Positions 1,385 through 33,985 of a stretch of DNA of 64,000 bases are shown here, piece by piece (the first letter of the stretch is position 1; every line of letters starts with the position of its first letter). Source of the DNA: Azolla caroliniana (taxonomy: Eukaryota > Plantae > Polypodiophyta). Under the pieces are notes generated by a model. It was not told where the DNA came from and did no database searches. It saw only the letters and a list, made by a program, of their open reading frames with translations. The DNA is taken from contig JBHGNT010000020.1 in assembly GCA_043228905.1 (NCBI GenBank), positions 2,418,001 to 2,482,000 of the forward strand. Direction: 5' to 3'. Both the position numbers and the translations under genes were made by a program.

Positions 1385-4300
1385 CCGTATTCCGGACCAA
1401 TGTTGTGGAACCCGTTCAAGCAACCGGAGGACGGAGTAGGAACCGGAAGCGGTATTCGAATAGCCGGCAACCAAGAGGAACCTACCACAGAGCCTGTGTT
1501 GTCGGATACAATGGAAAAGGAATAACATGTGTCCTTAAAGAAGGAAAAATAAAAAAAGAAGCCATCCTGCAGGGGTGAGGAGTAAATATGTGGCGAACGC
1601 ATGAGGAGAAGAAGAAGAAAAGAAAAAGAAAGAGTGGTAGTAAAAAATGAATGAACACCACGAAATGGCGTGACGTTAGGCATTTAAAGCGCACCACACG
1701 ACATACAACTTCTATAATAATACATGACATGCATGCGTAGGAATCAAGAAAAGGCGGCAAAGATGGGAACACAAAACATCCGCATTACAGAGTCTCTCTC
1801 ATTCCGCGAACATAGAGCCCTTAGCACATAGAAGCGGATACAGGTGATCAGGCGAATGCAAGAAGCTACCGCAGGCACCCCGAAGCTTACCACCACCACC
1901 AAAGTAAATGACACACTAGAGCCCATGGCGCTCTCCAAGACTGCCAAGAAATGGTTTACACAACATGGATTGGAGGGTTTTCTCCGAATAGCAGAAGCAC
2001 CTCCCCACGACGAACCAGAAGATCAACTTGGAGGAAATAATAGAGGAGGCTATCCGTGCCTTAATCGGATTGTCGGAGGGAGGGATCTACTCTATTGAGA
2101 ATCCTTCCCCAAAGACGCTGACGAAGTTCTTTGGCAAGTACTCCCTCGCCAGCAAAGCGTACCGCACACAGGGTGGTGACGACACCTTTTTCCAAGAAGT
2201 GGCTTGTGTGCTCCACAAGTATGGGTTTGTGCACCCCCGACCCCCGACAATGCCTAAGAACAGAGCCGGGTTCATCATCGCAACATACGAAGGGGTGAAA
2301 GTGGATTGTCCAGTAATCATCGTCGATTCTCTAGGAGTGGCCATCCAATCCGTAGTGGATGGCAAGAAAGTATGGACAACGGTGGCCCAATGGCTCACCC
2401 TCCTCGCACTACCAGTGCCGGCAATAAAGGCAAAGAAGCGGGGCCGAGCGGCGGATGCAACGCCAAACAAGCCTTCGAAGCGGCAACAACTCCTCGCCAA
2501 GCACACTCCCGACTGGACAGAGGGAGGATCGGCACATAAGGAAAAGAAACAGCCTAGTTGGAAGCAGCAGGTGGAGATCGAGGCACCGGTAGAACCACCG
2601 GTAAAGCCCCTTAAAATTAAACTGCACCGGCAGGAGCGAGAGTCGCCCACCTTGACTCAAAGAATTAACATCGGAACCCAAGAGGAGGAGGCGGAGGAAG
2701 AACCCGCCGACAATTTCCTACGTCGCCAGAAGAGAAGCGACGTGGAGCAGCAAGGGGACGAATCGGGTTCGGTAAAGGACATCACACCAACTCCCAGCTC
2801 CAAGGGACGAGAGCCAAGGCAAGAGATCGAGCCTGTTCGGCAAGAAGTGGTGACACCGGTGCTACCAGAACCGGTGATAGAACTACCTATCTCACCGGGT
2901 CGACATGCACAACAAGAAAAGGAGTTGTTACTGGAGACAAGACTACAATAAGGACTTGAGGGGAGACCAGAGCCGACACCACAACCAAAACCGCCAAGGC
3001 AACAAGGCACCGACAGTCAATGGTTGCATTGGATCGGAGAGCAGGTGGCCGAGGTGGTAAGCCAAATTGAAGCAGTAGAGATAGCACAAGGGGACCGGTT
3101 GTTCGCCACAACCGAAGAACTCGAGAAAGCCCGGTCGAGGATTCAGAGCATGGAGGAAGAAGTTGAGAAGGCCAAAGCAGACGCGGCCCAACAGGTCAAT
3201 TCGGGACCGACAAAACACATAAATAACAGATAAATAACACGTCGGCAAAACTACTGGAGGAAGCAACATGGGACCAGATGGAACTCACCGGACCGCATTA
3301 TGAGGAGACGGAACGAGCGAAAATGGCTCTGAACAAAGTTCAGACAACTTATCAAACTCAGTTGCTGGAGTATAGGGAACAAGCACAAGCAATTGCAATC
3401 CTTATAAAGAAATTGAAGGAAGAAACACAGGCCGTGGAAGACAAGTCCAAAATGGGGCTCAACCGGATCCGCGACATTGTATTGACTTGGAAAGAGCGGA
3501 CAAAGAGGATAATCGAGTAAAGCTCAGTACAATGGTGGTCAAAATGGGTGGAACAAGTAGCGGAATTGCAGGCTCTGCGAGCGGATGTGGAGAACTAGAG
3601 AAAAGACGGTGACAACTTCTACAAGCTGGATGCAGAGAGCATTGTAACCATCCGGGAGGAGTTGTCGGACGATTTCTTGTCCCTGGTAGGAGAACAATTG
3701 GCGGTTGTGAGGCGGTTGGTAGAACAGTTGGATGGTGAACAACTTGCCACTCAACTCCAATTTGAGTGGTACGAGCAGGAGCGTAGACGGTAGCTAGCAT
3801 TGCAAATGATGGCGGCAATCAACATAAGTGACGGAGAGCAATCTCTAGAGTAGCCACCGAATATAGCCGGAACCGGCGGAGGCCATCCAGACGAAGCCCG
3901 AGTGGAGCAGCCGGAAGTAGCCAGACCAAAAGAGCCAGCGGAAGCAGAACGAGAGCAACAGGAGCAGCCAAGGACGGAGGAGCCAGAGCCGGAGGGGCTG
4001 AGACCAGTAGAGCCGGGAGCGGATGGAGTCAGAGAGGAGGATCAGGCTGGAGAGCGACAACAATCGGAGCAACATCAACAAAAGCAAATGGAGCAACTAC
4101 CCGATGAACCGTTGGAACCCCTGGACCAGAGTATTCTAGACATTCGGGAAGATGAGTGAAGGGGCTAACCCGTGGGTTCGACGTACAAGGTACTGTCCCA
4201 CGGGCATGCCAGGTGTTGGCCGGTTAGGCCAACCTATGAAAGGGGAGCTGGTTTTGGGATAATGGGAGTTGTAATTAGAATTCATTATTATAATTATAAG

Positions 4301-4716: not shown

Positions 4717-7656
4717 CATCCGTGAAGTCGTGATAAAGGGTTCCCCGAGAATCATGGAATGCAAGACCTCATCTTGCACGAAGAAATTTTGGTCAATCTC
4801 TACATCTCCTATCTTCACCGGCACATTCGGACAAGCCGCAAATAGGTCATCCATTGTTTTAGTAGACGCACGGATCTTCCATCCATGACTGGTGTTAATC
4901 AGCCCCTTCCCTTTCCGGTAGAACTCCTTGGACATCAGGTTGATCTCCGATCCATGATCAATCAATGCGACTACGCGCTCTTTGATGTTTCCAATTCGGA
5001 CTAGAGTCTCTGTAGTTGCTCGTGCCCAATGTGTCTTTGTGTAGTGGGAGTTTGAAATTTGGTCCTCCGTTTCCGTGTCATTCATTAGAATCATATTTGC
5101 ATTCACCTTTAGAGTATTTAAATATTCCGTAGCTTTCCTCTTTCTCTTCACAAGATCCACGAGGAGATCATGGAACTCTTTCTTTGCTATTCCGAGCAAT
5201 TCCTGGAGAGAAAATTCCACCCGACTATCAAGGATTCTCTCTTCGAACACCTTCTTTAGGTCCATTTGTTGTTCGATGTCCGAGGCGAGTTTGAATGCCG
5301 GAATCGTTTTCTCTTTTCCTTTTCCTTCGGAATTCCAACTCTGTGGTGTCTTCGAGGGTCCGGCCACATCGCCCGTGCACCGTCGTTTCTTATCTACGTA
5401 CACCTCATGTAATTGGTATAGGGCATATATGCTATTCTTATCTACGGGGCACTCCCATCCCGTAGCTTCCCAAATGCCTTCTGCAGTGCTCCGGATTTCA
5501 TCAGAGTGTGTTTTCTCGGAGATGCCTTGACTTTCTAACACTATCAAGGATTCTCTCTTCGAACACCTTCTTTAGGTCCATTTGTTGTTCGATGTCTGAG
5601 GTGAGTTTGAATGCTGGAATCGTTTTCTCTTTTCCTTTTCCTTCGGAATTCCAACTCTGTGGTGTCTTCGAGGGTCCGGCCACATCGCCCGTGCACCGTC
5701 GTTTCTCATCTACGTACACCTCATGTAATTGGTATAGGGCATATATGCTATTCTTATCTACGGGGCACTCCCATCCCGTAGCTTCCCAAATGCCTTCTGC
5801 AGTGCTCCAGATTTCATCAGAGTCGGTTTTCTCAGAGATGCCTTCACTTTCTGACACTTCTGGCTAGAAAGATGCCTTCACTTTAGATATTTCACCCACA
5901 TGCATTTCCGCGGTTGTCACATAATTGATTTTTACCTCTATCTCCTCCTCTAGGGCCTTCTTCATGCTGCATTTTCAGAAGTTCGGATGGAATGGCTTCT
6001 GAGTATCCATCGAATGGATCCGATTTCCTTCATAGTAGATAAGATCCGGCTGTAGAGCCTCCTTGAGCTGATCACATTCCTTCCGATCATGTTCGGCACT
6101 ATCGCACCATATGGACCGTCGGTCCATATACTTGGAACTTGTGGGACAGTCTTTTGATTTCTTCACCATGACAATCTTGAGATTCTCTATCTCTTTTAGC
6201 AATTGCTCCATCGTAGTTACTTCGATTCCCTTCTCGGTCATAGTTTCTCAAGCCCGTGGTTGGTAGTCTTCTGCTATGAATCTCAACCTCAACGTTTGTT
6301 CCCTACTCCTCTCTTCATGTCCAAGCCATTGCCCCCTCTTTGTGTATTGAGTGACGATGTTTCGCACATTTTCCCATGTATTGGTGAGGCCACTCTCGGT
6401 AGTCGTTTCCTCTAGAAGCACTCCAAGATCTTTCTAATCCCATATGTCCACAGCTCGTAAGAACATGATCACTTTGTCTAGTACGAGGATAGCTTGATCT
6501 CTCGCGGACAACCTCCCGAATCGACTTTCAAATGCCGAACATACATCAAGGACCTTCAACCCCTCTGTCTGGTGTTTCCACCCAATCTTTGAATCCCCTC
6601 CGCGACACCTTGGAGGAATCTTCGATAGCAAATGTAGTCTTTAGCGTTTCTTCAAACGCTTCCCATGTCAGATTTTGTTGTCGAATCCCGTGGATACTCC
6701 CTTGAAGCCCATCTGTAGCCACCCGATTGAAGGATGACATTTGCAATCCTTTCGATATCCCACAACGCAGCATCTCCGCCTTGTTGTCCCAAAGATAATG
6801 TGAAACATCCTTCCCATCGAAATGACCATTCCATTGCAAGAGTCGTTCTAAGGCAGCTCCAACCTCCGACATCGCGTGTGGTTCCTGTAGTATCCACTCC
6901 AATATTGCCATCATGTTGTTGTCCTCTTGTTGATTCTCCATCTCCTTGCCACCCATCTTCACGTCGGGTTCACCAAATGTGTCGTGGCTTTCGGCGCCAG
7001 ATCGTTGCGTGAGTCGGATGGGAACCATTGGGGTTTTGGAATAGGAGGAAGAATTTGAGATGAGTCTAGTTATGAATAGATTGTAAGAAAGAGAGAAAGA
7101 AACTTGTGAATCCCACAAGTATAATGTATTTTATTAATCAATATTTACATAAGAATATGAATTTAGATTGAAAGAGAATAATATAGAAACTTCGTGAATC
7201 CCACGAGTATAGTTTATTAATTGGTACTTCAAAACATATCCAATTTCCAAAGATTTTCACACCTTGTTACATTATACTCCCCATCCTTATATAGTAATAA
7301 GAGAGTTTTAGCAATCCATGTTTTTTCTCTAAATATCAACTCCATGCTTTTTCTATCAATAGACTATATGCTTTCTCTAACATGCTTTTTCTAAAAGTGA
7401 TCATGCGGGATATTTAGAAGCTATTTTATCTAGAAAATATAGTTGAAATAACCTTTCAATGTGGGATATCTATTTTTTAATATCTATGATGTGTTAGTAT
7501 AATGGTAAAGCTTTACATTATAAACATAGAGGTGTAAGGTTCGAATCTTGCCCTATGCATGTAATATATATTTTAATATTTATTTCTTTTTCTTCATATT
7601 TATTCAATCGGTTATTTTATATATTTTTCACGTAGTGTACAAAATACGCTACGACA
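4717..7656 (-). mobile_element. 5' part of an autonomous-type family-P element: 5' LTR (6980-7656), tRNA-Trp PBS (6958-6975), decayed Gag-protease
   Basis: ORFs 6546-7118, 5975-6241 and 4711-5547 align by eye with the Gag-PR ORF 54021-56147 (ALIDHGSEINLM). PBS reads TGGTGAACCCGACGTGAA. Confidence 0.9.
5224..5850. repeat. About 316-bp tandem duplication inside the decayed gag
   Basis: ACTATCAAGGATTCTC...GAGATGCCTT starts at both 5224 and 5540. The peptide STAEGIWEATGWECPVDKNS is duplicated. Confidence 0.9.
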
Positions 7657-9962
7657 CCGGCTTATCGTTGTAGCAACGATTTCTGCACAACTCACATCAA
7701 AAGTAGAAGAAGTTCAATAATGAACACCCAGATGGGAAGCGCTCTTCCCACCGAGAAGCTCGATAGAACAAACTTCGCATCTTGGGAGTACAAGATGCAT
7801 CAGTACCTTGTTGGACAACGTTACTAGAGCTACATCTAGGGAGCTCACAAAACGCAACCCAACCCGACACACGCTGACTACCTAGCGTCTGGGAAAGCTG
7901 CGAGCTTGTGTTGTATTGTGTTGCATCATGTGTCCATGACCACATGCTCGAATATATTTGGGATTCGAAAATGCCGAAAGAAGCTTGGGGAAATCTCAAG
8001 AAGATTTTTGCAGCCGATACTGCTACACGAAAGCTCCAACTTTGACAGGAGCTAAACAACATGCAACAGAGGGACATGTCGATCACCGACTATAGCTTGA
8101 AGATCAAGGAGGTGTGTGATGCCCTCAATTCGATTAACGTCATCGTCGATGATGAAGAAATGGTGCAAATAGGCCTCGACAGCTTGGCACCTCGATTCAG
8201 CACGCTAAGATCAGCCATTCTTGCGAGGGAGAACCCTCCCTCCTTTTTCGACCTTCAATCGATTTTGTCGGTCGAAGAAAAACACATTCGACAAAGGAAC
8301 AATGCGCCTGATGGTCAGATGTTCTACTCATAGTCGGATGATAGAAGAGGATTCGATCATGGAAATAGAAGTCGGTTTGGACGAGACGGTCGGCCGACCC
8401 AAGAGTGTAACTCCCACCAATGGCAAGAGGACAAGAATAGTCCTAGAGAGTTCGGCAGAAGGGGGAGCCACCCCGCCAGACAGAGCAATCATAACAACTT
8501 GATCGAATGCGGGTATTGTGGAAAACATGGCCACTATGAACAGGAGGCCGAGAAGGCCGAATGTTCATCCTCGAATTAGAAGAGGTGAAATCGGCTATGT
8601 TCGCAGAAGGCCTCAAAGTCAAAATAGGCTTGAAAATGTGGCACAAGAGAATCGGCCACATCAATCTCCAAAAGCTCCAAAACATGCAATTGAAAAGAGT
8701 CGTAATCAGACTCCAAACTTTATCGAGAAGGAGATTACGAGCGTATGCGAGGCATGCTAATTCGGAAAACAACACCGACATCCATTCTCGAAAGAGAGTA
8801 ATGTGAGTAAAGGGATCTTGGATGTAGTACATTCAGATGTGTGGGGACCAGCCCAGACCGCAACATTTGGAGGTTGCCACCACTATGTCAAGTTGATCGA
8901 TGACTTCTCTAGGCACACTTGGATCTACCTGATGAGACAAAAGAGCGAAGTGTTCAGACACTTCCAACGGTTTAAGAATGAAGTCAAGAAAGCGATGGGC
9001 CGACATGTACACTGCCTTCGGTCGGATGGAGGCAAGGATATTTCTCGAACGTGTTTTCGGCATATCTCCGAAAGGAAGGAATACGACGAGAATTTTCGTG
9101 TCGACATATACCTCAACAAAACGGTGCCGCCGAACGGAAGATTCGGCACCTAGTAGAGGTTGCACGGGCAATGATGATTGAGAAGAACCTGTCGAAATCG
9201 TACTAGGTAGAAGCGACGAACACAACCGTATATCTCATGAACAAGTGTACAACCTCTGGGGTACACGACATAACCCCTCATGAGAGGTTTTTTGGAAAGA
9301 AGCCGGATTTATCACATGTTCGTATTTTCGGCTCAATCGCCTATGTGCATATTCCCGACAAAACGCGACAAAAGCTCGACCCGAAGTCAGAGAAATGTAT
9401 CCTCGTAGGGTACTTGCTCGAACAGAAGGGGTACAAATGCTACAACCCATGTACCCGAAAAGCTCGAGTGAGTCGAGACGTCGTTTTCGACGAGTCGGCA
9501 TCCTGGTGCAATCCAGAGGCGACTCCGATCTCTACTCCAGTCGACTCGGAATTGACTGAACGAGAGATAGAAGACGAATTTCACCTCGGATCCATGTTTG
9601 AAGAAAGTCAGATTACAACAAGAATTAGTGGACCACAGGAACCCTCGAGTGACCGAAGCCCATGTCGACCGAGTCCGAAACACGACAAAGGGAAGGCCAA
9701 GACATGTCCGAATACGAAGATCCAATCGACAACGAGTCAACTCACTCCCTCGATAGTGACTGCAAAGGCCTTGACATCCGGACAAATGGAGCGAAGAAAG
9801 CCTTAGTATCCGCAAACGAGAAGCTATGCCAGTCTACTTGTGAAAAGAACCTCATAAGCCGTTTCGGCTACGATGAGTATATGGTGTATCATTACGCATT
9901 TATGATGAAGGTAGCAATTGTCCGAGAGCCAGAAACATTTTTCGAAGCCGTGAAGGACCCAT

Positions 9963-12900
9963 TGTCGTGCCTTTCGGCCCCGGATCGTTGCGTGAGTTGG
10001 GTGGGAACCGTTGGGGGTTTGGACTAGGAGGAAGAATTTGAGACGAGTTTAGTTATCAATATGAATAGATTATAAGAAAGAGATATAGAAACTTGTGAAT
10101 CCCACAAGTATAGATTATTAGATTTATTAATATTTAGAATCCTAATTACAATTTATCATAGATTGGAAGAGATAAATTATATAAAACTTCGTGAATCCCA
10201 CGATTATATTAATTGGTGTTTTAGGAAATATACCCAATTTCCCAAATATTTCACACCTATTACATTGTGCTCCTCATCCTTATATAGTGATGAGAGAGTC
10301 TTAATAATCCATGCTTTTTCTATAGATAGACTCTATGCTTTTTCTAAAGTGTTCATGCACACTAAATGTGCATGAGTTGCTTTTTACATGATGCTTTTAT
10401 TTCCTAAATATAGTGCTCATGTTCGCTAGATGTGCACGAGTAATATTTTATTGGTTTACATTTTTCTTATAAATAAAGTATTCACGCACTCTAAAAATGC
10501 ATGGCTTACCTTTTTAATAAAGGTAGGCGTAAATTAAGGTCTTATAGGTATTAAATCTATATTTAAAACACTAATGATAAGTTAGTACAATGGTAAGGTT
10601 GGGGTTTGTCTACATGGAGGTATAAGGTTTGAATCTTGCTCTATGCACGTAATAAATATTTTTTTAATATTTTATTTTATTTATTATACGTACTTTAAAT
10701 CGGATATAGTATTTTACATATTTCACGTAGTGTGTGATTCACAATACGACACTCGCCCCCTTCGAACCCGCACATCCTCCGGTATGTGCCGAAGCTGTCG
10801 GTGATTGTTAGTCTCATCCGTTCGGTCTCCACCCGATTGGTTTCGTCGTTGGTCGTGCTTGGTTGCCGGCTCCGCCTGGTTTCCGATTTTCAGTTGCTTG
10901 CTCCGCCCGGTTACCGGTTGCCGGCTCTCATATTTCTCCTTTACTCGCAATCCCCTCCGTTTTCTCTTGTTATGTTGACTTTGTCTCTCCATTTTGAGCA
11001 CATCCATTCTTTCCACCCGAACCATTGTCGCCATCCGATCCACCATATTCTTTGTTCTCTCTTTGCATTGCCATGGTCGGTTGCCATGGCTCCTTGTGAT
11101 CCTCTTGAGCATAACCCTTCTTGTCTTGTGCATGTGCCATGCTTCCCACTTTGTTCACCTTTGTCATATAATCTCGCGTTAGAGTTGATAATCTTCATGT
11201 TAGAGCTCACCGTCTTTGTTAAGATCTCATTGTTAATAATACCCTTCAAATCCGCTTGGCCCTTGTCGTCTGTGGTAGTGTGCCTGTTTGGCGTCTTCCT
11301 CGTGTTCACCAGCCTCGATTGCTTCGACCTCCGGTTGAGTCGAATTAGCTTCTTTTTGGATCAGTCTTGTCTGATCGGTGTTCGGTTGGATCGGCTTCCA
11401 ATCGAATTCATATTCGGCCGATTCGGACTCGGTTGATCGGTTTTTACCGATTCGGCCCCCTTCCGGGTCGGTTTCGATCTATCGGTTTCAGTTTCGGTTG
11501 GCTTTCTTTTCCTCGTTTTCACCGGCCTCGACCGGTTCAACCTTTGACTAAGTCGGATTAGCTTCTTTCCGGATCGGTCTCGTCCGATCGGGTTTCAGCT
11601 AGGTCAGCTTCCATCTGTATTCGCGTTTGGCCGAATCGGACTCGGTCGATCGGTTTTGATCGAGTCGACCCCCTTTCGGGTCAGCTTTCTTTCGGATCGG
11701 AATTTTGTCCGGATCATCTTCCATCCGAACCAGCTTCCGACTTTACCTTTCTTGCCGCCACCTCCCGTCTCTCCGGTCTCACGTTGCTTCTCGGACACAA
11801 CCGCCGAAGTCTCTAGGATTAGTGGGCAGGAATCCTTGGTATTATCGTTCTCCGTCATTTCACGCATATCCACCTTCTTGGCTATCTCTCTGTTGTATGC
11901 ATCAACTTCGGCCTTCGTTTTCTCTCTGCCACCTTCCGTCTCTTCGGTCTCACGTTGCATTTGGAACGCAACCGCCGAAGTCTCTAGAACTAGTGGTGGG
12001 AAAGTCTTCATACAGCCATCCGTCATTGATTTGTCCATAGCCACCTCCGATTCGATGTCATCTTTCATGGTGACTTCCTCAATCAAGTCCGCCTCGCACT
12101 CTTTATCTCCCTCGATCATGCAAGCATCGATTATGCTTACCCCTTTTTCACCCGATGTTTCGGATACTTGTATTCCGAAACCTTCTTCCATTCTTGAAGT
12201 GGTGTTCGCCACTCTCAAGTCATCGACCTTATCCTTGGTCGTCGTTCTTTCGCAAGACGAGAGGATGCCTTGTTCCACACCCTCTCCCATGGTACCGTCG
12301 AATCGTACTTTGGCCTTCATATCAACCACATCGTTAATCCTTAATCGATCATCCCTTATAGGCCATGTTGTTGTTGACAAGATTCTCTTCTTCCTCTCAT
12401 CATGTCTCCGACATACCCTTTTGACATTGGTCCAATCCTCAGTAAGACCATTCGCACCGTCATCGTCTTCGAGTTTGATCCCGATGTCCATCCTTTCTTT
12501 CTGATCGATCGACTTCATGAACATTAGGACTTTATCCATCCCCACCAATCGTTGTTCCCGCTCCGAGAGTTGAGCAAAATGATACTCAAACTCTAAGAAT
12601 GCTAGTGTTGCAGTTCGGTGAGTCTTTGCCGATGCCACCCACTAGTCAAACTCGCATCGATCTCGTCCCATCAATCTCTCGTAGTCATACTTCTCCAATA
12701 GTGCTTTCTCAAAGGACACCCACGTTGTGTTTTGTTGTCGTATCTCGTATATGCTCTCTTGCAGCTCGTTCGAGGCCACCCGACTAAAGGATATCACTTG
12801 CAATCCTTCAGGTATTCGACATCGCATCATCTCCGCCTTATAGTCACGTAGATAGCGTGACACATCATTTCCGTTGAATTGCCCGTTTCGTTGCACAAGC

Positions 12901-13831
12901 CACTCTACTACCGACTTCATCTCTAACATCGCACGTTGCTCTTGTTGCATCCGTTTGATCATCATCATCATTATGCTCATCGCCTCTTGTTGATTCTCCA
13001 TCTCCTTGCCACCCGCCTTCACGTCGGGTTCACCAACTGTGTCGTGCCTTTCGGCGCCGGGTCGTTGTGAGAGTCGGGTGGGAACCGCTGGGGTTTTGGA
13101 TTAGGAGGAGGAAGAATTTGAGATGAGTTTAGTTATCAATATAAATAGATTATAAGAAAGAGATATAGAAACTTGTGAATCCCACAAGTATAGATTATTA
13201 GATTTATTAATATTTAGAATCCTAATAACAATTTATCATAGATTGGAAGAGATAAATTATATAAAACTTCGTGAATCCCACGATTATATTAATTGGTGTT
13301 TTAGGAAATATATCCAATTTCCCAAATATTTCACACCTATTGCATTGTGCTCCTCATCCTTATATAGTGATGAGAGAGTCTTAATAATCCATGTTTTTTC
13401 TATAGATAGACTCTATGCTTTTTCTAAAGTGTTCATGCACACTAAATGTGCATGAGTTGCTTTTAACACTATGCTTTTATTTCCTAAATATAGTGCTCAT
13501 GCTCGCTAGATGTGCATGAGTAAGATTTTATTGGTTTACATTTTTCTTATAAATAAAGTATTCACGCACTCTAAAAATGCATGGCTTACCTTTTTAATAA
13601 AGGTAGGCGTAAATAAAGGTCTTATAAGTATTAAATCTATATTTAGAACACTAAGGATAAGTTAGTACAATGGTAAGGTTGGGGTTTGTCTACATGGAGG
13701 TATAGGGTTTGAATCTTGCCTTATGCACGTAATAAATGTTTTTTTAATATTTTATTTTATTTATTATATGTACTTTAAATCAGATATAGTATTTTACATA
13801 TTTCACATAGTGTGTGATTCACACTACGACA
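9963..13831 (-). mobile_element. Complete non-autonomous family-P element (Gag-like ORF only, no pol); LTRs 13040-13831 and 9963-10751
   Basis: Two highly similar LTRs, Trp PBS at 13018-13035, PPT at 10752-10763, flanks CCAT/CCAC. The internal 2.3 kb has no RT, RNase H or integrase motifs. Confidence 0.92.
11604..13022 (-). pseudogene. Gag-like ORF with long acidic C-terminal extension, one in-frame stop at about 12642
   Basis: ORFs 12642-13022 and 11604-12638 share a frame. The N-terminus (QRNGQFNGNDVSRYLRDYKAEM) matches family-P Gag. Confidence 0.75.
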
Positions 13832-14013
13832 CCACGATGGGTCGACGCGATGCATAAAGAAATGCAGGCCTTGTGCAAAAATGAAACGTGGGATCTTGTT
13901 CCCCATTCACCTCAGAGGAAAGCAATTGGTTGCAGATGGATCTATAAAGTAAAATACAATGTTGATGGCTCCGGAAATCGCTTCAAAGTACGACTTGTCG
14001 CAAAAGGATACGC

Positions 14014-14771
14014 TGTCGTAGTGTATTTCGTACACTACGTGAAAAAGTAAAAATAATATAACCGATTTAATTACATATAAATAAATAAAATAAGAATATC
14101 AAGATATTTATCACCAATAAATAAAATAAGAATATCAAGATATTTATCACGTGCATAGGGCAAGATTCGAACCTTGTACCTCCACATAGCCAAATCTCAA
14201 CTTTACCATTATGCTACCTTATCTTTAGTATTCTACAAATAGATTTAATAACTATAAGTGCTTTATTTGCGCCTACCTTTATTAAAAGGTAAATCATGCA
14301 TTTTTAGAGTGCGTGAATATTTTATAGAAAAACGCAAGCGACTAAAAAGTGACTCATGCACATCTAGCATGAATGAGCACTATATTTAGCAAATAAAAGC
14401 AAGGATTAGAAAAGCATCACATGCACATTTAGTGTGCATGAACATATTAGAAAAAGCATGTAGCTATGCTTAGTCTCTCCCATCACTATATAAGGATGGG
14501 GAGCACATTGTAGTTTTTGTTGATTATTTTTCTATAATGATCAATCAATCTAAAATATTCGTGGGATTCACGAATTTGCTAAAATAATTCTCTCTTACTA
14601 CCTAAATATTGACTAAATATACTAAACTCGTGGGATTCACGAGATTCTTATCTTATAACTCTTTATACCTAATCTTTACTAGCTTTATTTGTATTTTTCT
14701 TTCTCCTAGTCCAAAACCCCAGTGGTTCCCACCCGACTCACGCAAATGATCCGGAGCCGAAAGGCACGACA
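14014..14771 (+). mobile_element. Family-P solo LTR
   Basis: TGTCGTAGTG...GGCACGACA with perfect 4-bp TSD ACGC/ACGC, inside the copia RT (KGYA|Q). Confidence 0.93.
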
Positions 14772-15292
14772 ACGCTCAAACACACAAAGTTGATTATGAG
14801 GAGACCTTTGCCCCGGTGGCAAAGATGACGATTGTTCGAACAGTCTTAGCTCTCGCAGCCGCAAAAGGGTGTCACCTCGACCAAATGGACATAAAGAATG
14901 CCTTCCTACAATGAGATTTAGAGGAGGTGTACATGATATAACCATCTGGCTTCGAATCGTGTACTCACCCGAAAGTCGTGTGCCGACTCAAGAAGCCAAT
15001 CTACAGCCTTAAGCAAGCACCGCGTGCTTGGCATTCAAAGATCACTCAGTACCTTCATCAAGTTGGCTTTCGAGTGTCGAAATCGGACAACTCCCTATAC
15101 ATCCAAAACGAGTCGAACAACCCAATTGTCATCATCCTATACGTGGATTATCTATTAATCGGAGGAAAGGTTCTCGCCGAGATTAATAAGGTAAAATCAC
15201 TCCTATCCGGCAGATTCGAATTGAAAGATATGCACGAGCTCCATTACTTCCTTGGCATAGAAGTAATTCGAACGCCAATCGAGATGTTAATC

Positions 15293-17798
15293 TCTCTTGC
15301 ACCTCGTCTTGGTGATCCAGTGTTTGATAATCAAAAGCAGGTAATCTTGGGACCAACACGTTTGCACACAACGCGGATTTTTCACACTCCACTAGATTCC
15401 TGGATTATCGATGCCATACATGCTAACCTGAAGACTGATAATTTTGCTCAAGCCATTCTAGCGCACATTGATACCTCTTGGGCATCCTGTTCCTAGTCTC
15501 AACAACCAGGTATGAACTATCGACAATTCAAATATCATGATGATTTATCGTTCTTTAAAAAGCTCGTATATGTTCCTGATTGCTCTTGTCGCCTTCAAAT
15601 CGTCCAAAATTGTCACGACACCCATACAACGGGACATTTTGGTAGTACGAAAACGTTGGATCTAGTTCAACGATCCTTTTGGTGGCCCCATATGCGACGT
15701 TTTATCAATGACTACGTTCGAACCTGTGATGCTTGCTACTGAGCAAAGATGCCACGACATCATCCATATGGCTTGTTGCAACCCTTACCGTTTCCAAGTA
15801 AGCCGTGGCAGTCCATTTGTCTTGATTTTATCACAGATCTGCCAGTCTCGAAGGGTTTCGATGCTATCTTAACCGTTGTTGATCGATATACTAAGATGGC
15901 ACATTTTGTGCTGTGTACTAAGGCCATCACTAGTGAGGAAACCGCCGCCCTTGTCATGTGTGAGGTATTTCGGCACCATGGCCTCCCAGATAGTATAATC
16001 AGTGATCGAGGACCTCAATTCGTCTCCAAATTTTGGAAGCATCTCTTCAAGATGCTCAAGGTCTCGTGTAATCTCTCCTCCAACTACCATCCCCAGACCA
16101 ATGGGCAGGCGGAACGAACAAATCAAACATTGGAACAATACCTCCTGTTACCGGCCGGCAAAGGAGTCCAGAGTGGGAAACGGAGAGCTAATTAAGTAGT
16201 AGGAATGTGGTTGTAATTAAGCTATGAGTGTGGACGGACGGACCGGAAGCGGTATGCCGTTCCGGATCCAGACCGATCCCGAACAGGTGCGGATGGCACC
16301 GTTTTGTAATACAGACCGGAAACCTATTTAAAGGCTCGGATACAATGTAATAGTTAGCGGTTAATTAATGAAAGCTTAAGCGTTGTTATATCTCTGTGTT
16401 AATTGCCGTTCTGTCTTAATTGTTATATCTTACGCGTGTTATGAAGACGATCCTAATAAGTAACTTGATTAAGTCGGATTAAGCGTTGAAGTCTAATCCG
16501 GTTGCCGTAACACCCTTTGGTGAAGTGTCTCCCGTAGACACCCTGTGTTAGGCCATTGTCCGGCCCGAAGAGTTAACACCTCTGGTGTTTTCTGAGTTAT
16601 CAGCAGGACCATTAGGTTGATATTCTCCGCTTTGCGGAGTTTGCTTATAATAACGCTATTCACTCCTCGACTCGGGTCTCCCCATTTTACGCTTATACTG
16701 GTTCTCATCCTTGTTGGTCTATGATTGACACCCCGAAGCCACCTACCAATCCTTGTGTCGAGGATCATTTGGAGAGGCTACGCATGATCCAGATGGATCT
16801 CTCTACTCATCTTCGTCATGCTCAACACACACAGAAGGCTTATGTGGATCGTCATCGGCATCCCTCCTCTTTTGCCATCGGAGATCAAGTATGGCTCTTA
16901 CGTCATCACATCAAGACTACTCGACCATGTGACAAGTTGGATTATCGATGACTCGGTCCTTTCCGTATTACCGGTAAGGTTAATGATGTCACATTCCACC
17001 TTGATCTTCCTCCGCATCTTCAGATACATCCGGTCTTCCATAGTTCTCTTCTTGAACCTTATAAAGCAAACACTATTCCCGATCGTGTTACACCACTGCC
17101 ATCCCCGCTTGAGTTAGACGCCAGCCCGGAGTATGAAGTTGTTGTCGTCCTCGGCTCAAAATTTGTTCGTAACAAACTTTATTATTTGGTCGATTGTCTT
17201 GGCTATAGTCCAAGCGAACGTACTTGGGAACCCATCGAGCATGTCGCCAATGCTCAGGATCTTCTTGCTGATTTCCACCGACAATATCCGGACAAACCCG
17301 GTCCTCCATCAGCGCGACTCGTTACACTCGTCGTCTTAAAGGGGGGATAATGTCATGATATGACAAGACTCGAACCCATGACCTTATGTTATATGGATCG
17401 AGCTCTTGACCATTATACCATCTATTCTAATGCGTAGGATATTATTTTCATTTAAGTTTTATTATAGGAAATTAATGTATATTCCAGATTTCTCTGGAAC
17501 ATTCTAGAAGCTTCAGGACTCCTCCTAAGAACACTATAAAAGGAGGCACAAGGCATTATGTTGAACCAAATTGGTTCAACGCCAGTCTTAAGCCTCATAG
17601 CCATCTTGTACTTACTCTTCATATAATATATCATCTGTTATCATCATCGCTCTCTCTCTCGTCCTCGCTATCTCTCTCTCTCTCTCCTCTTCTCTTTCCT
17701 CTCTTTCAGGAGTCTTACGCAATCCCTTCCTCTTAGTACTAATAGTACTTCCCTTCTCCAATACTAATTCTCTCTCCGTTTTAGTACTATTCCTGATA
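15293..17798 (+). mobile_element. 3' half of a family-T (Tcn1-like chromovirus) element: integrase, chromodomain, PPT, 3' LTR (17351-17798)
   Basis: Motifs PWQSICLDFITDLP, SDRGPQF and YHPQTNGQAER. PPT AAAGGGGGGATAA. LTR homologous to 22339-22761. The 5' end is fused abruptly to copia RT. Confidence 0.9.
16146..16578 (+). mobile_element. Solo LTR related to family C
   Basis: TGTTAC...GTTAACA with 5-bp TSD CCTCC/CCTCT, splitting the integrase at LEQYL|RCF. Shares CCCTTTGGTGAAGTGT...ACACCCTGTGTTAG with 4214-4716. Confidence 0.85.
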
Positions 17799-20700
17799 GT
17801 TTCAGACCATACAAGCTTTTCTTCAGTCGACACACCAGGTTCTCTTTATCTTTCCCCACAAAAACTTTGGGTTGCTGCATGTAGATCTCCTCGTCCAACT
17901 CCCCATGCAAGAATGTTATTTTGACATCCAACTATTCGATATCCAGATCCATAACAGTTCAATGGATATCGTTTTCACAACTGGAGAGAATATTTTATCA
18001 AAGTCAACACCCTTTTTCTATTGGAACCCCTTCACCACAATTCGGGCATTATACCTGGGTGCACTATCGACTTCTCTAGTTTTTACCTTGTAGACCCATT
18101 TATTCATGATTGCGCTTTTACCTTTTGGTAGCTCCATCAAGTTGTAAGTATAATTTTCATGCAAGGAATCCATCTCGTCCTGCATTGCACTTAGCCATTT
18201 CTCTTTGTGCTCATTATTCATGGCCTCATCATAGCACTCAGACTCACCTTCATCAATGAAGAGGATGTATTGATTGGCGTATGTGGTCAATGATCTCCTT
18301 TCTCTTAAAGGGTATCTCCTTCCACTCATTGTCAGCTCAAGGTTAGTCGCTAATCAACCGACTCTTCATTCGGCTCAGGTTCCCGCATGTCGATCGGTTG
18401 CTCAAGGTTAGCCAACTCCGACTCGTATTCCTCGATCAACTTCAGTAGGTCTGCTGAATCCGACTCATATGTATTGGTCGGTTGCTCTAAATCGACCTAC
18501 TCGGATTCGCCTATGCCGACTGGTTGTCTCCCAACAACCGATTGTGTCGGTTCGACTAGTCTTAAGTCAGCGGTAGTGGGAGTTGATTGGGAAATCGATT
18601 CGGACTTCTCTTGTTTCCAGTACTCGATCGTCTTGTCTTCCAAGAAGACTATGTCCTGACTCCTCATTATCTTCTTGTCGACTAAGTTCCACAACCTGTA
18701 GCCAAACTCATCCTTAGAGCACCCCATGAATATGCATGGTTTCAACTTCTTGTCGAGCTTCGAGCTCTGATCCTTTGCCACATGCATATACACCAGACAT
18801 CCAAACACCCTCAAGTGTCGGTAGGAGACTTCCTTTCCTGTCCACACCCTCTATGGGACATCGCCTTTCAATGGCACTGAGGGAGATCTATTGATCATAT
18901 AAACAGTTGTGTACATCGCCTCAACCCAATATGATTTTAGCAGGTTAGCATGCAACAAAATGCTCCTTACTCTTTCCATGATCGTCTGATTCATCCTCTC
19001 GGCAAGCCCGTTCAACTCAGGGGTCTTAGGAATAGTGTATTCAATTCGAATACCTTGGGCCTTGCAATATTCTTTGAACTACGCTCTATATTCACCACCA
19101 TTGTCGGTTCAGACAGCCTTCAACTTCCAACCCAACTCTCGTTCTGCCCTTGCTTGGAACTCCTTGAATACCGACAGTACTTGATCTTTCAACTTTCATA
19201 CGGAAGCCCACAACTTTCAATTGTAGTCATCAATGAAGTTCACAAAGTACGGTCCACCTCGATGTGATGGGGAATTGCGTAGCACACATCTATGTGTACT
19301 AGTTCCAATGCCGCTTCTCTTCTCCTTGGTGGTCTCGTGTGGAATGCAACTCTGTTCTGCTTCCCAACTAGGCAGTCGACACACTTCTCCAGGTGCACTC
19401 CGTTCACCTCCGGGAGAAGTTTCTGATCAGCTATGATGTGCATCCCCTTTTCAGTCATGTGGCCAAGCCTTTAATGTTATAACTCTCCATTCGAGTTGGC
19501 TGCCAGGTTTACTTCTGACTTGCACAACTTGGCTTGCATCATATACAATGTGCCTTGTTTCTGTGCTCGGGCCACTATGAGGTTTCATTTGCAGAACTTC
19601 CGCTTGCCATTACGAAAGCTACCAATATAGCCTTCGTCATCCATTCTTCTAGTCTATATCAGATTGAGCCTGATATCATGTACGTGTCGGACATCCTTCA
19701 GAATCAGCCAACAACCAGTCGACGTTGTCAGATATACATTTCCGACACCAACTATCTTGCATTCCCCATTATCTCCCATCTTCACATAGCCATGATCTAC
19801 GGCTATGTTGTCATGGAGTCGCTCACCTAGAAGTGTATCATTGCGTAGATAGAAGACAACTGAAAGTGAGGAAGGAATCGTTGGGATTTTGGACGAAAGA
19901 GACGAAAGAGTGGAAGTAGATAAATAGTGATCAACAAGATATGACAAGATATGATGTAAAATGATAATTGAGGGAATGTAAGAAATTTATAATTATTTCA
20001 TGGAAGAGTTACAAAATGGTTGCGAGCGTCGTTGAACCGTCAAACTTTGTCTCACAAGGTAGTCGCTCTTCTCTTTCTTGATAGTAGACCATAATCTTCC
20101 CTTCTATCTTTCGATGAGGATAAGACTCAAACCTCCGCCTTTTCGTTGCAAGTTGAGCACCGCCGCCGCCAAGCTAGTTCTTCTCTTGTCTTTTAAAGAT
20201 TGTATATAGCTTTTACCTTCTCTCCCTCTTTCTCTATTATGATATCTCTTACAATATAATTTCACTCAATTTCATACAATAATTCTATTCAATATGATTG
20301 ATTGATTCCTTGATATCCTTGTGCCTACACTCCCTTCTCCTTTTATAGGAATGGGATGGTTTTGCATGTGGGCCATATGTCACACATGGAAAGAGGGCTC
20401 TTGCATGTGTGCTATATGGTGCACATGTAGTACATTAAATGGTTTAGACTATACAATACTACTTCAAATAAAACAACACATTTTGTTTTACATATATAAT
20501 GAGTATTGTCTAAATTGTAGGATTTGAGGTTCATAATGTGGAGGTTGTTGGTTCAAGTCTTCTCTCGCCCATGTAATACAATATATGGTGCACATGTAGT
20601 ACATTATATGTTTTAGGATTTAAACCATACAATATTACTTCAAATAAAACAAGACATAGTTTTATATATACTACAATTATAGGGTAAATGGTAAGATTTC

Positions 20701-21255
20701 AAAGTCATAAGTTGGGGGTTATTGGTTCAAGTCCTCTCTTGTCCATGTAATATAATATATATGTTTTATTTGCCTCTACATATAGTGTATAATATTATCA
20801 TAGTGTGTTTTTAATATACCTTTATAAAAAAATATCAAGATATATTTTATTTTAGTTACATATTTATCTTTTTGTAGACTTTTAATGTGAAGCTTTCGTA
20901 CTTCACAACAACGTAAGTCTAGAAACACTCTCTCGAGGGAGTTATATGAAAGGATGCACCTGAGTCAATTACCCAAGTACACTCTTCACTTACAAGATTT
21001 GTGCTTGCCTGCTCACAAATAAACAAGATCTCCTCTTCACTTGTAGCAATGGATGATGTGCCCTTCTCCTCAGAAATCTTTTTGGGTTCAACATCCTTCG
21101 AGGCATCTTTGTCCTTCCTAAGGTGTCGAAAATCCTTCTGGAAGTGTCCAAGTTTTCCACAGAGTCACCACCAGGTTCTCCCAGTTGTCTGACAGGGTAC
21201 ACAATAGTAGTACGACCTGCATAGCATCATCAAGGGGAAACTTAGCTACCGCAAG
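17799..21255 (-). mobile_element. Decayed Ty1/copia (Tnt1/Tork-like) internal region
   Basis: Protease WVIDSGASFHITP (about 20935-20975), integrase HLRVFGC...KLD, and RT KWVYKVK...ARIVVKGF and LVCRLKKSLYGLK, all on the minus strand. Confidence 0.88.
19809..20910 (-). mobile_element. Solo LTR of a diverged P-related family
   Basis: Ends TGTCATGG...CACAACA look like CpG-decayed TGTCGTG...CACGACA. 4-bp flanks ATGT/ACGT. The copia protease frame resumes across it. TATA (CCTATAAAA, minus) at about 20341-20349. Confidence 0.75.
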
Positions 21256-22135: not shown

Positions 22136-22834
22136 AACTTTTTGGCACCTATTTTGCCAAATAAAGACTTACGATGAGGATCGCTCCTACAATAACTGCA
22201 CCATAAAAGACCAGTTTTCAAATCCTCTTGAAGCCACTTAAATTTAGTAAGTCAATCTTCTTGAAATTTTAGTTTGGCCTTACTAACTCTATTCATCTCA
22301 TGAAGTAACTCTTGAGAGTGTTTATGGTCCTTTATAGGTGTCATGATATAGCAAGACTCTAACCCATGACCTTATGGTATATGGGTCGAGCTCTTAACCA
22401 TCACACCATCTATTGTAATTCAAAGGATATTATTTTCATTTATGTTTTATTATAAGAAAGTAATGTATATTCCAGATTTCTCTGGAACATTCTAGAAGTT
22501 TCAGGATTACTCCTGACAACACTATAAAAGAAGGCACTAGGCATTATGTTGAACCAAATTGGTTCAACGCTAGTCTTAAGCCTCTCAGCCGCTTTGTACT
22601 TATCTTTTCACATAATATATTAGCTGTTGTCATCATTTTTCTCTCTCTCTCCTCTTCTCACTTCCTCTCTCGGGAATCTTACGCAGTCCCGTCCTCTTAG
22701 TACTAATAGTACTGCTCTTCTTAGTACTAATTCCATCTCTGCTTTAGTACTATTCCTGACAGTTTGAACCAATTTTTCCTTTCCTCCAGCCTACTTGTCG
22801 TTCTCCCTCATCCTCCTACCCTTTTCCCTATACT

Positions 22835-26900: not shown

Positions 26901-27562
26901 CCCCATTCTACGCTTATACCGGTTCTCATCCTCGTTGGTCGGTGATCGACACCCCAGAGCTACCTACCAATCCTCGTGCCGGGGATCATTTGGAGAGACT
27001 ACGCAAGATCCAGACAGATCTCTCGACTCATCTTCGTCATGCTCAACAGACACAGAAGACTTACGCGGATTGTCATCGGCTTCCCTCGTCTTTTGCCATC
27101 GGAGATCGAGTATGGCTCTTACGTCGTCACATGAAGACTACTCGAGCGTGCGACAAGTTGGATTATCGACGACTCGGTCCTTTCCGTATTACGGGTAAAG
27201 TTAATGATGTCACATTCCGCCTTGATCTCCCTCCGCAGCTTCAGATACATCCGGTTTTCCATTGTTCTCTTCTTGAACCTTATAAAGCAAACACCATTCC
27301 CAATCGTGTTACACCACCACCGCCCCCGCTGGAGTTGGACGTCGGCCCAGAGTATGAAGTTGTTGCCATCCTCAATTCCAAACTTATTCGCAACAAACTT
27401 TATTATTTGGTCGATTGGGTTGGTTATAGTCCGAGCGAACGCACTTGGGAACCCGTCGAGCATGTTGCCAATGCTCAGGATCTGCTTGCTGATTTCCACC
27501 GAAAGTATCCGGACAAACCCGGTCCACAATCAACGCCGACTCGTTCCACTCGTCGTCTTTAA
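23980..27562 (+). pseudogene. pol of family-T element (PR, RT, RNase H, IN, chromodomain), disrupted
   Basis: ALLDSGA, YLDDLL, EADAS, DFITDLP, SDRGPQF, GPF and chromodomain EYEVVAILNSK...YLVDWVGYSPSERTWEP. Several stops and one frameshift near 26530. Confidence 0.92.
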
Positions 27563-33630: not shown

Positions 33631-33985
33631 TGTTACGTCTTTCTTTCTTTAGACTAAATTCTTTCTTTCTCCATTTCCGAAAGAAAGGCAAAGTATTTGT
33701 TCGCTCATCACATTCTTCCTTCTTCGGATCTGAAAGCATATATGGCTTGAAGGACCCTTGTCTTTGTTTCTTTCCTTTGTGGTGGTGATGGTGGACCAGG
33801 GGTAGTTTGGTAATTTCAGAAAATCAACAGGGGTATATGGCCCAGAATTAGTACATACTGATACAGCCATAGCCATGGCCATGGCCCTGCCCCTGCCCTG
33901 CTGCTGTTGGAGATCTATCTGAAGCAGAGGAGGAGAGGATATGGAAGAAGAGAGAGAGACTGAGTGACCCACTGTCTCAAAAGCC

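Follow-up and report, generated by a model that had tools for sequence, protein, structure and literature searches.

We asked what the tRNA-like cassette near position 7,490 of a 64,000-nucleotide stretch of Azolla caroliniana DNA (contig JBHGNT010000020.1, positions 2,418,001 to 2,482,000; hereafter the window) represents, and why LTRs of retrotransposons keep it. The reading that we favour, and to which we give about an even chance, is that the cassette descends from a tRNA gene which has decayed except for its internal promoter, and that this promoter has been conserved, likely as a TFIIIC-binding DNA element beside the Pol II promoter of the LTR. An earlier note had described this cassette with seven companions and had proposed a convergent recruitment of such promoters against silencing. 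The observation of antisense tRNA-like cassettes was confirmed, and the interpretation as a whole is partly supported.

Identification of tRNA-like cassettes in the window

Rereading of the sequence placed the A box (TAGTATAATGG) at 7495-7505 and the B box (GGTTCGAATC) at 7538-7547, with the claimed 45 nt between the start of the A box and the first T in TTCGA. All seven further sites were confirmed as well. Each of the eight cassettes (Table 1) is antisense to its own LTR and lies ∼255-320 nt upstream of the TATA-like box (in P6, of the first copy of a duplicated TATA); the P2 cassette, being upstream of this box, was assigned from sequence to U3. Their alignment revealed homologous copies within one LTR family (family P), so they do not count as independent observations, and they represent one homologous tRNA-derived unit in the U3 of a single Phygy-type Gypsy LTR family. 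A ninth LTR (P9), which the earlier note had not listed, belongs to a more distant Phygy family and carries two antisense cassettes and one sense cassette.

At a threshold of at least 20 bits, a generic tRNA A/B-box matrix, which was not trained on these copies, found 10 sites in the window, and dinucleotide shuffles of the window contained 0 such sites in 19 of 20 cases and 2 in the remaining one. The claim that the boxes are not due to chance holds for individual LTRs as well, since the antisense score exceeds that of 200/200 shuffles in 12 of 13 LTRs (199/200 in the LTR P3). Five copia LTR-like stretches, a thin control, reached at most 14.6 bits; of these, a single one (its end at 50762) has an anchor, namely a primer site together with a copia gag.

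Table 1. Cassettes and associated features in the window (TATA-like box and terminator are predictions)
Feature	Positions	Strand	Comment
P2 cassette	7488-7559 (body, positions 1-72)	+	antisense to LTR P2
P2 cassette motifs	A box 7495-7505, AGGT 7529-7532, B box 7538-7547	+
P2 T-rich tract	7571-7591 (TTTT 7571-7574, TTTTT 7587-7591)	+	candidate Pol III terminator
LTR P2	6980-7656	-	5' LTR of truncated Phygy-type element inside copia element
P2 TATA-like box	7285-7294	-	sequence-based
Primer-binding site, P2 element	6959-6975	-	same site in P4 and P7
P1 cassette	746-817 (boxes 810-758)	-	LTR P1 643-1384 (+)
P3 cassette	10576-10647 (boxes 10583-10635)	+	LTR P3 10751-9963 (-); B box C56T
P4 cassette	13656-13727 (boxes 13663-13715)	+	LTR P4 13831-13040 (-); B box C56T
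P5 cassette	14152-14223 (boxes 14216-14164)	-	solo LTR P5 14014-14771 (+)
P6 cassette	29707-29778 (boxes 29771-29719)	-	solo LTR P6 29628-30625 (+); C56T
P7 cassette	53465-53536 (boxes 53529-53477)	-	5' LTR P7 53210-54069 (+); A box G10A
P8 cassette	59969-60040 (boxes 60033-59981)	-	3' LTR P8 59737-60573 (+)
P7-P8 element	53210-60573	+	near-complete Phygy-type Gypsy; LTRs 99.6% alike; PBS 54074-54090
LTR P9	19985-20911 (ends approximate)	-	other Phygy family; 73% to L029 LTR
P9 antisense cassette	20680-20733	+	U3; 20.2 bits
P9 second antisense cassette	20507-20559	+	decayed tandem duplicate; 16.2 bits
P9 sense cassette	20124-20176	-	downstream of TATA-like box; 19.5 bits
T1 cassette	17355-17427	-	antisense; 5' end of LTR T1 (17351 to ∼17800, +)
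T2 cassette	22343-22415	-	5' LTR T2 22339-22761 (+); B box C56A, absent in T3
T3 cassette	27578-27650	-	3' LTR T3 27574-27996 (+)
T4 cassette	61290-61362	+	LTR T4 (61366 to ∼60940, -)

Two retrotransposon lineages with cassettes

Family P appears to carry the marks of Phygy, a non-chromovirus Ty3/gypsy lineage. The P7-P8 element encodes gag-protease, RT, RNase H, integrase and SH3 in the Gypsy domain order; the four ORFs scanned from 54009-59746 gave no Chromo match, and no extra ORF was found. Named homologues are Riccia proteins, at 54-60% for the best-ranked, and no RNA data set was found to contain the P7-P8 element. The conserved 17-nt primer site following P2, P4 and P7 is presumably a tRNA-Trp PBS. 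According to the lineage paper (PMC6317226), 81% of Phygy elements use the tRNA-Trp primer, their published length is 7656-9968 and their target duplication is a 4-bp NCGN. The P7-P8 element, with 7364 bp, is slightly below this length range; the duplication ACGC/ACGC at P7-P8 and at the solo LTR P5 fits NCGN, while the flanks are ACGC/GCGC at P6 and GTGG/ATGG, a poor fit, at the single non-autonomous element flanked by P3 and P4 (LTRs 95.9% alike).

Family T has the marks of the Tcn1 chromoviruses. Its 5.7-kb T2-T3 element contains a chromodomain (PF00385) in 26324-27559, has the 5-bp ATAGG on both sides and is predicted to be self-priming, the sequence behind the 5' LTR being complementary to a stretch just downstream of TATA. 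A second Tcn1-like LTR also carries a cassette; that of locus L068 lies in a nested Tcn1-like LTR. No such cassette was seen by eye in the Selaginella SM-Tcn1 LTR, thus it is not a fixed Tcn1 trait.

The two families are different lineages, as the earlier note held, and blastn gave no match between their LTRs. Homology of the P and T cassettes themselves, considered because of letters in common behind the B box, found no statistical support: outside the boxes their identity is 0.35, compared with 0.305 +/- 0.076 for the background, where 28% of the 90 pairs attain 0.36.

Conservation of the boxes and loss of the tRNA fold

The cassette derives from a tRNA, as had been claimed, and its boxes have changed about fourfold more slowly than the remainder. 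In 11 LTRs of family P, chosen by LTR or integrase homology and not by their boxes, changes per column amount to 0.33 in the 18 box columns vs 1.38 over the remaining 48 columns of the cassette (Mann-Whitney p=8e-5), and the invariant columns to 13/18 vs 11/48; hence neutral decay, the alternative named by the earlier note, is not borne out for this family. AGGT and TA(20-21) are invariant too (6/6), and none of the 72 columns of the cassette contains a gap vs 23 of 83 columns of the upstream flank, with no indels in the spacing.

Positions outside the boxes are also kept among 14 cassette groups picked as dissimilar from the pairwise identity matrix: A44 in 11, G45 in 12, G46 in 14, T47 in 13 and A38 in 12 of the 14 (binomial p 2e-4 to 2e-9), with neighbours near background. 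Since the A/B-box matrix does not score positions 38 and 44-47, their conservation is not an ascertainment effect. The G19-G53 spacing, scanned over 22-70, peaks at 33-35 (29 of the 35 scored sites, overlapping registers included), and A box and B box thus stand at tRNA spacing, which is the trait of a type 2 Pol III promoter. Genome-wide contigs aligned at 80% likeness (those of run X20, probably DNA, were treated as DNA) accumulate over the cassette, around TATA and at both the ends of the LTR, with far fewer on the flanks. This depth is not a copy number, and where it falls on the side of the B box there is a poly-A tract whose length varies; within the B box, every position varies in less than 2% of the depth.

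Two substitution patterns count against the favoured reading. The B box is broken by C56T in P3, P4, P6 and L015, a change that arose twice among the 11 LTRs of family P; being found in both LTRs of P3-P4 and in P6, it is carried by copies that still moved. In yeast, mutation of cytosine 56 is reported to lower TFIIIC binding severely (PMC4228148). The tolerated change G57A, on the other hand, was seen 0 times in family P.

By contrast with the boxes, the cloverleaf has been lost. ARAGORN returned 0 matches; the Rfam tRNA model, aligned over 1-71 to 746-817, scored 21.2 bits, under the 29-bit cut-off, and had no match on T3. The stems pair at 0.48/0.50/0.46/0.45 vs 0.40/0.52/0.43/0.45 for arms from different cassettes, and pairing stands at 48% vs 51% in shuffles, so that both a tRNA gene and a retained cloverleaf were rejected. 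The anticodon-equivalent triplet differs between copies, with CAT in 4 of 36 rows, too weak a signal to name a donor, and no donor tRNA was identified, as the P-type pattern had 0 matches in the genome contigs.

Distribution of cassettes among related elements

Among Phygy families from metagenomes, the presence of cassettes is patchy: 10 of 25 informative families, with integrases 65-100% identical, possess one. Its absence in the other 15, the mixed state of family 15 and the decayed copy of L026 count against the favoured reading. Some copies in the cassette-bearing families are tandem and some are in sense orientation, thus the rule that cassettes are always antisense, true of the eight cassettes above, fails beyond them: sense cassettes occur in the U3 of L004/L005 and L021/L024/L030, and downstream of TATA in P9, L027 and L029. 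Most cassettes lie in U3 upstream of the TATA-like box. The existence of several positional and orientation classes among relatives favours repeated gain or rearrangement.

Of 25 strong sites (at least 20 bits) in 382 kb of loci, 22 fall inside 48 kb of LTR segments, two more are in LTRs missed by the end-finder, and at most one is outside any LTR; shuffles give 1-4. The LTR of L035 (integrase 69%) is homologous to that of family P from the cassette to TATA (68% over 245 nt) and has intact boxes. Cassette carriers are scattered over the integrase tree, a quick tree of 46 of 80 loci and two window rows, in which the root is unreliable owing to a very long outgroup and L068 is mislabelled. In viral contigs, the cassette pattern had 0 matches and both integrase queries were without a relative.

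Flanking signals

The flanks are richer in T downstream than upstream, in the direction of the cassette itself, in 13 of the 14 groups and whichever the orientation; plant tRNA genes are described as having a T-rich downstream flank likewise (PMC7544208). The T-rich tract begins ∼10 nt behind position 72, with no SINE body, and all seven family-P copies tested have TTTT at 22-36 nt beyond the B box. Other signals count against our reading. A TTTT run within 45 nt is present in just 7 of the 14 groups. Internal TTTT runs are not significantly depleted in these groups (1 vs 3.2 expected, p=0.11; 2 vs 8.5 on 31 copies, which are non-independent), and plant upstream motifs are not enriched (CAA 4 vs 2.4, TATA 2 vs 2.4). 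In plant Pol III genes, an upstream TATA (∼-34 to -29) and CAA (-7 to -3) are reported, though not in all active genes (PMC3082873).

Alternative explanations

The selected product might be the Pol III transcript itself, a short U3 hairpin RNA that would act as a decoy, give rise to small RNAs or regulate the element in antisense, which we consider unlikely. The perfect hairpin that the earlier note saw in P1 exists, at 752-758/767-773 and not at 751-772, and its seventh pair depends on T753, private to the P1 copy (T>G in >99% of depth). As a general trait it fails: fold z ranges from -5.0 to +1.9 across 20 copies, and P1 (-5.0) and T4 (-4.3) fold strongly, but P3, P7, L003 and L004 do so no better than shuffles. 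A hairpin that is not part of the tRNA fold, and whose loop contains the B box, has 76.9% of cells paired in 16 P-type cassettes vs 66.2% in shuffles (0/500), and 32-45% when slid off register; however, it was read off P1 and its relatives, and the two measures that the program rates as robust are not significant (49/500 and 101/500). The TTTT behind the B box in family P and the kept A38 would suit such an RNA, as would the precedent of foamy-virus LTRs, which are reported to make Pol III pri-miRNAs from A/B boxes (PMC3993851), whereas RNAalifold found no consensus fold among the cassettes and the groups have no common sequence beyond the boxes, AGGT and A38. It is distinctly improbable, in our view, that the cassettes are neutral passengers, i.e. 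tRNA genes, pseudogenes or tRNA-only SINEs captured in AT-rich LTRs, with the conservation being a search artefact. Patchy presence in both orientations, the decayed copies in L026 and P9 and the two C56T events would be expected of passengers, and Repbase is said to hold 'not a few' LTRs with tRNA-like parts (PMC10886601); but the family-P comparison, free of box ascertainment, weakens this explanation, and the kept unscored positions, the T-rich tract in place of a SINE body and the intact boxes of L035 also oppose it.

We regard it as very unlikely that the cassette works at the RNA level, where its antisense copy in genomic RNA would pair with host tRNAs or their fragments through universal D-, variable- and T-loop bases, for primer capture, for packaging, or as a fragment target or sponge. 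The kept positions are indeed those common to many tRNAs, the spacing is of tRNA length, antisense is commoner than sense, and tRNA fragments are reported to target Gypsy RNAs in Arabidopsis and to occur in Physcomitrella (PMC5605234). Yet sense cassettes conserve the same positions in U3 and behind TATA, the self-priming Tcn1 elements carry cassettes with no need of a tRNA primer, and the complementarity is interrupted between the boxes. The least probable explanation considered is that the boxes are kept because common Pol II factors bind them or because other elements use them as a landing pad, their tRNA likeness reflecting origin only. The A-box core may resemble homeodomain sites, which would fit Pol II factors; but a type 2 promoter predicts that A box, AGGT and B box are conserved together at a single spacing, as they are in the 14 groups, and the P and T LTRs of the window, a small sample, are without foreign insertions beside the boxes.

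Proposed mode of action

The cassette appears to be a module that selection has conserved in LTRs from many Phygy families and from two or more Tcn1-like ones. If its boxes act as an internal promoter, TFIIIC, together with TFIIIB and Pol III, would bind it, and a short RNA of ∼95-105 nt ending at the T tract may be made. By analogy with yeast tRNA genes, the bound complex could keep U3 nucleosome-poor or block silencing or read-through from the flank, and such a barrier would raise the chance of a copy staying transcribable. A module of this kind would be helpful but dispensable, presumably with a history of repeated gain, duplication, inversion and loss. Most of what is known of tRNA-gene barriers comes from yeasts and animals. 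In fission yeast they are reported to function in either orientation (PMC2040200), and Pol III complexes to change neighbouring Pol II transcription (PMC4228148). Nevertheless, the sign of the effect could go either way, because Arabidopsis tRNA genes in repeats and transposons are themselves described as silenced by CG methylation (PMC7544208) and yeast tRNA genes as able to repress nearby Pol II promoters (PMC4228148). An anti-silencing effect of the cassette is only a conjecture. More tentatively still, and as something that we hold less likely than not, autonomous Gypsy elements of non-seed plants, in the two distant lineages Phygy and Tcn1 alike, may have repeatedly and independently captured tRNA genes and reduced them to portable TFIIIC barrier modules next to their Pol II promoter, a cis-acting means against silencing that would spread very many TFIIIC sites over the host genome.

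Relation to known systems

The closest likenesses are to Helenus/TRIMp3 and to the Pol III units of foamy-virus LTRs. In Helenus/TRIMp3 (Kojima 2024, PMC10886601), an LTR is likewise described as carrying a tRNA-like sequence conserved at boxes A and B, with several proposed origins and no functional tRNA. Helenus elements are, however, TRIMs without coding capacity, 311-1263 bp long and presumed to be transcribed from the Pol III promoter, with Selaginella as the sole plant case (PMC10886601), whereas ours are protein-coding Gypsy elements of ∼5.7-7.4 kb with gag-pol and a TATA-like box, and their cassettes are antisense in most cases, occur in tandem or in both orientations in some, and have a T tract behind. 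They thus agree with Helenus in the conservation of the boxes and differ from it in size and coding capacity. According to the same paper, autonomous partners should rely on Pol II; other Repbase LTRs with tRNA-like parts receive only a passing mention (PMC10886601). Cassandra is likewise an LTR element of plants that has captured a Pol III promoter, but it is a non-autonomous TRIM whose 5S rRNA type 1 promoter drives its own transcript (via PMC10886601). The miRNA cassettes of foamy-virus LTRs are also A/B-box Pol III units with T terminators in an autonomous retroelement, but their product is an experimentally demonstrated structured pri-miRNA (PMC3993851), while here the unit is collinear with a tRNA and has no established conserved fold. 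Yeast tDNA barriers and ETC sites share the proposed action of TFIIIC/Pol III on chromatin and Pol II promoters, independent of product and orientation, but are host chromosomal sites and not part of a mobile element (PMC2040200, PMC4228148); in the literature searched, no demonstration of such action in plants was found. Pol III boxes in Phygy or Tcn1 LTRs are not mentioned in the available text of Neumann et al. 2019 (PMC6317226) and Novikova et al. 2010 (PMC2864245), and the word tRNA has 0 occurrences in PMC7466625. In the literature covered, mainly open-access papers, A/B cassettes were not found described for the LTRs of autonomous Phygy or Tcn1 elements.

Implications

The unit is small (∼70 bp) and comes in natural variants (intact, C56T, tandem, inverted, and absent in close families), which makes the idea directly testable. 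Efforts to annotate tRNA genes and SINEs in these genomes would be affected too. The finding bears on how high-copy plant retrotransposons remain transcribable under DNA methylation: if the cassettes bind TFIIIC, they would constitute an element-borne cis device in addition to protein-based counter-silencing, and bursts of LTRs would spread sites for Pol III factors across the genome.

Cassettes in the LTRs of the window

The window is composed of nested LTR retrotransposons surrounding a host gene region (33873-40406). The tRNA-derived cassettes, carrying an A box and a B box at tRNA spacing, that the earlier note had placed in eight LTRs of family P were confirmed at 8/8 sites, each antisense to its own LTR, and represent one unit passed on by inheritance. 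Sites were scored with a generic A/B-box matrix, built on the consensus of these boxes. Its B-box core matches that in the accessible text of PMC4228148. Ten sites in the window reach at least 20 bits (19 of 20 shuffles gave none), and each of the 13 LTRs outscored at least 199 of 200 shuffles, so the boxes are not as frequent in shuffled sequence. The matrix maxima elsewhere in the window are 14.6 bits in five other LTR-like stretches, 12.1 bits in 1.6 kb of AT-rich DNA and 17.7 bits in the 12.5-kb gene region. The Rfam tRNA model matches the P1 cassette over its full length but scores 21.2 bits, which is below the cut-off, and ARAGORN found no tRNA gene. An overlooked LTR of another Phygy family (P9) carries two antisense cassettes in U3 and a third, sense, downstream of its TATA-like box.

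Features located in the window
Feature	Coordinates	Strand	Basis
LTR P1	643-1384	+	family P alignment
LTR P2	7656-6980	-	family P alignment
LTR P3	10751-9963	-	family P alignment
LTR P4	13831-13040	-	family P alignment
LTR P5	14014-14771	+	family P alignment
LTR P6	29628-30625	+	family P alignment
LTR P7	53210-54069	+	family P alignment
LTR P8	59737-60573	+	family P alignment
Exon, conserved uncharacterised plant protein	34942-35484		best named matches ~66-75%
DCD-domain match, short	39795-40406	-	domain match in host gene region

Host elements

All eight family-P LTRs align end to end. The element at 53210-60573 (LTR identity 99.6%, ACGC duplication, Gypsy domains, no chromodomain) matches Phygy, a lineage that PMC6317226 characterises by a 4-bp NCGN target duplication and a tRNA-Trp site. 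The named relatives of the Gypsy polyprotein are proteins of the liverwort Riccia; taken with the matches of the host exon and the element lineages found, they suggest a non-seed land plant as host. Family T, with four LTRs, agrees with Tcn1 in its chromodomain, 5-bp duplication and self-priming complement. Blastn between P and T LTRs gave no match either way; together with the Phygy and Tcn1 marks, this bears out the earlier claim of separate lineages.

The left target copy is ACGC in each of three Phygy insertions (14010-14775, 29624-30629, 53206-60577), which fits the published NCGN preference; the real preference is perhaps narrower. The stretch 9963-13831 is a 3.9-kb non-autonomous Phygy derivative (LTR identity 95.9%) with a C56T B box in both LTRs and no Pfam match in its internal ORFs. 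The P7 and P8 U3 regions contain an array of ~22-23-nt tandem units between LTR start and cassette (window 53290-53420), one unit shorter in P8, and within the solo LTR P6 a stretch of ~210-235 nt is tandemly duplicated (29869-30311), which doubles its TATA region.

Conservation of the boxes

Among 11 P LTRs picked through LTR or integrase homology, changes per column amount to 0.33 in the boxes, 1.38 in other cassette columns (p=8e-5) and 1.22 in the remaining U3; AGGT (tRNA-equivalent positions 44-47) and TA (20-21) show zero changes. No gaps occur in 72 cassette columns, but the B-box-side flank is also almost free of them (2/33 columns), so the indel argument is one-sided. When contigs of four runs were aligned at 80% likeness, depth was highest over the cassette (mainly its B-box half in run X20), the LTR ends and the region of the TATA box. 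At a threshold of 2% of depth, two runs show no variation at any B-box position and variation at 8/66 places in 745-810, G19 among them (4% in one run); this comparison is weak by itself and dominated by young high-copy subfamilies. Evidence against a strict need for the boxes is that C56T (common to P3, P4 and P6) has two origins and that G10A is present in P7 and P8. The B-box CpG is intact in 7/11 P LTRs and three other U3 CpGs in 4/11 each; most U5-end CpGs are better kept than the B-box CpG.

A comparison of 14 dissimilar groups of cassettes shows that several positions outside the scoring matrix are retained: A38 (12/14), A44 (11/14), G45 (12/14), G46 (14/14) and T47 (13/14). A spacing scan from 22 to 70 peaks at 33-35. 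Pairing in the cloverleaf stems is not above the cross-cassette null, no consensus fold emerged from a search of the cassettes, and the B-box hairpin of P-type copies passed two lenient controls and failed two robust ones. Read in the cassette's own direction, the downstream flank is richer in T than the upstream flank in 13/14 groups, and a T4 run lies within 45 nt behind the cassette in 7/14; internal T4 runs are not significantly depleted across the groups (p=0.11), nor is there any enrichment of CAA or TATA motifs upstream.

Cassettes in related elements

An integrase-alignment search gave 319 matches, of which 127 were confirmed; the best 80 of these 127 loci formed 44 clusters at 90% DNA identity, 25 of them informative (at least 350 nt of LTR counted from its start). 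Cassettes of at least 19 bits occur in 10 of the 25. They are antisense in P, L028, L031/L033, L045 and L051, tandem antisense in L027/L029 and L036, and sense in U3 in L004/L005 and L021/L024/L030, and L027/L029, L035 and L036 hold both orientations. Thus the statement that cassettes are always antisense holds for the eight originally named, and fails for these sense carriers and for the third P9 copy. The loci are metagenome assemblies of repeats, in which chimeras are possible: the two L028 LTRs are not alike, and the two ends of L033 disagree. Carriers are scattered across a quick integrase tree with an unreliable root, in which L068 is mislabelled.

L004/L005 share 86% integrase identity with P, but their LTRs are alike only over the last 76 nt and their cassettes 25% alike outside the boxes. 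In the more distant L035 and L045 (69% and 67%) the cassettes are P-like, with 55-56% likeness outside the boxes, and the P and L035 LTRs align from cassette to TATA; the P-type unit is therefore old or travelled with the LTR. Single loci show further arrangements: the L027 LTR contains four B boxes, since one cassette (3130-3460) is directly followed by a further copy of its own B-box half; L037 has a 23-bit cassette (3080-3133) ~1.2 kb beyond the LTR start; and L071 has a perfect A box and AG(A)GT near a contig end that cuts off the B box.

In L068 the cassette belongs to a nested LTR, close to its 5' end; this LTR ends in the self-priming motif of family T and is a second Tcn1-like carrier; no cassette was seen by eye in the Selaginella SM-Tcn1 LTR. 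In family T (61304-61353 and the other T cassettes) the post-A-box spacer is a near-perfect inverted repeat of the B-box region, possibly through template switching, forming a long hairpin (z -4.3 in T4, -1.8 in T1) and a B-box-like word on the opposite strand. The T cassettes at 17351-17427 and 27574-27650 face outwards 17 nt from the LTR 5' end, with no T tract behind them inside the LTR; a transcript would enter the polypurine tract (3' LTR) or the host flank (5' LTR).

Origin and possible function

Outside the boxes, P and T cassettes are 35% alike against a background of 30.5 +/- 7.6%, a sequence likeness compatible with separate origins. Within Phygy, the differing positions and orientations call for several captures, or for one old capture that was duplicated and inverted and then saturated. 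Helenus TRIMs are defined by tRNA-like LTR parts in the accessible text of PMC10886601, which also mentions in passing further Repbase LTRs with such parts; unlike Helenus, the window elements fall outside the TRIM criterion. Searches of the accessible literature found no account of such cassettes in autonomous Phygy or Tcn1 elements.

The retention of promoter positions without tRNA structure, the free orientation, the tandem copies and the location upstream of the LTR's Pol II TATA box are best fitted by a DNA-level TFIIIC/Pol III module, a reading to which we give an even chance. From such a candidate module an anti-silencing effect, as the earlier note proposed, might follow. In the available portions of the respective papers, a fission-yeast tRNA gene forms a barrier in either orientation, requiring TFIIIC and Pol III (PMC2040200), and neighbouring Pol II transcription is affected in budding yeast (PMC4228148); against anti-silencing counts that in Arabidopsis even tRNA genes carry methylation and are silent when they lie within repeats (PMC7544208).

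A functional Pol III RNA made from the cassette, for which the accessible part of PMC3993851 offers a comparison case, is unlikely, and that the cassette is a passenger we consider distinctly doubtful. RNA-level pairing with tRNA has a comparison case in the available text of PMC5605234 and appears very improbable, and other binding factors or landing pads are the least probable explanation. Judged by its sequence, the cassette is real, under selection at least in family P, and more widespread than the earlier note saw.
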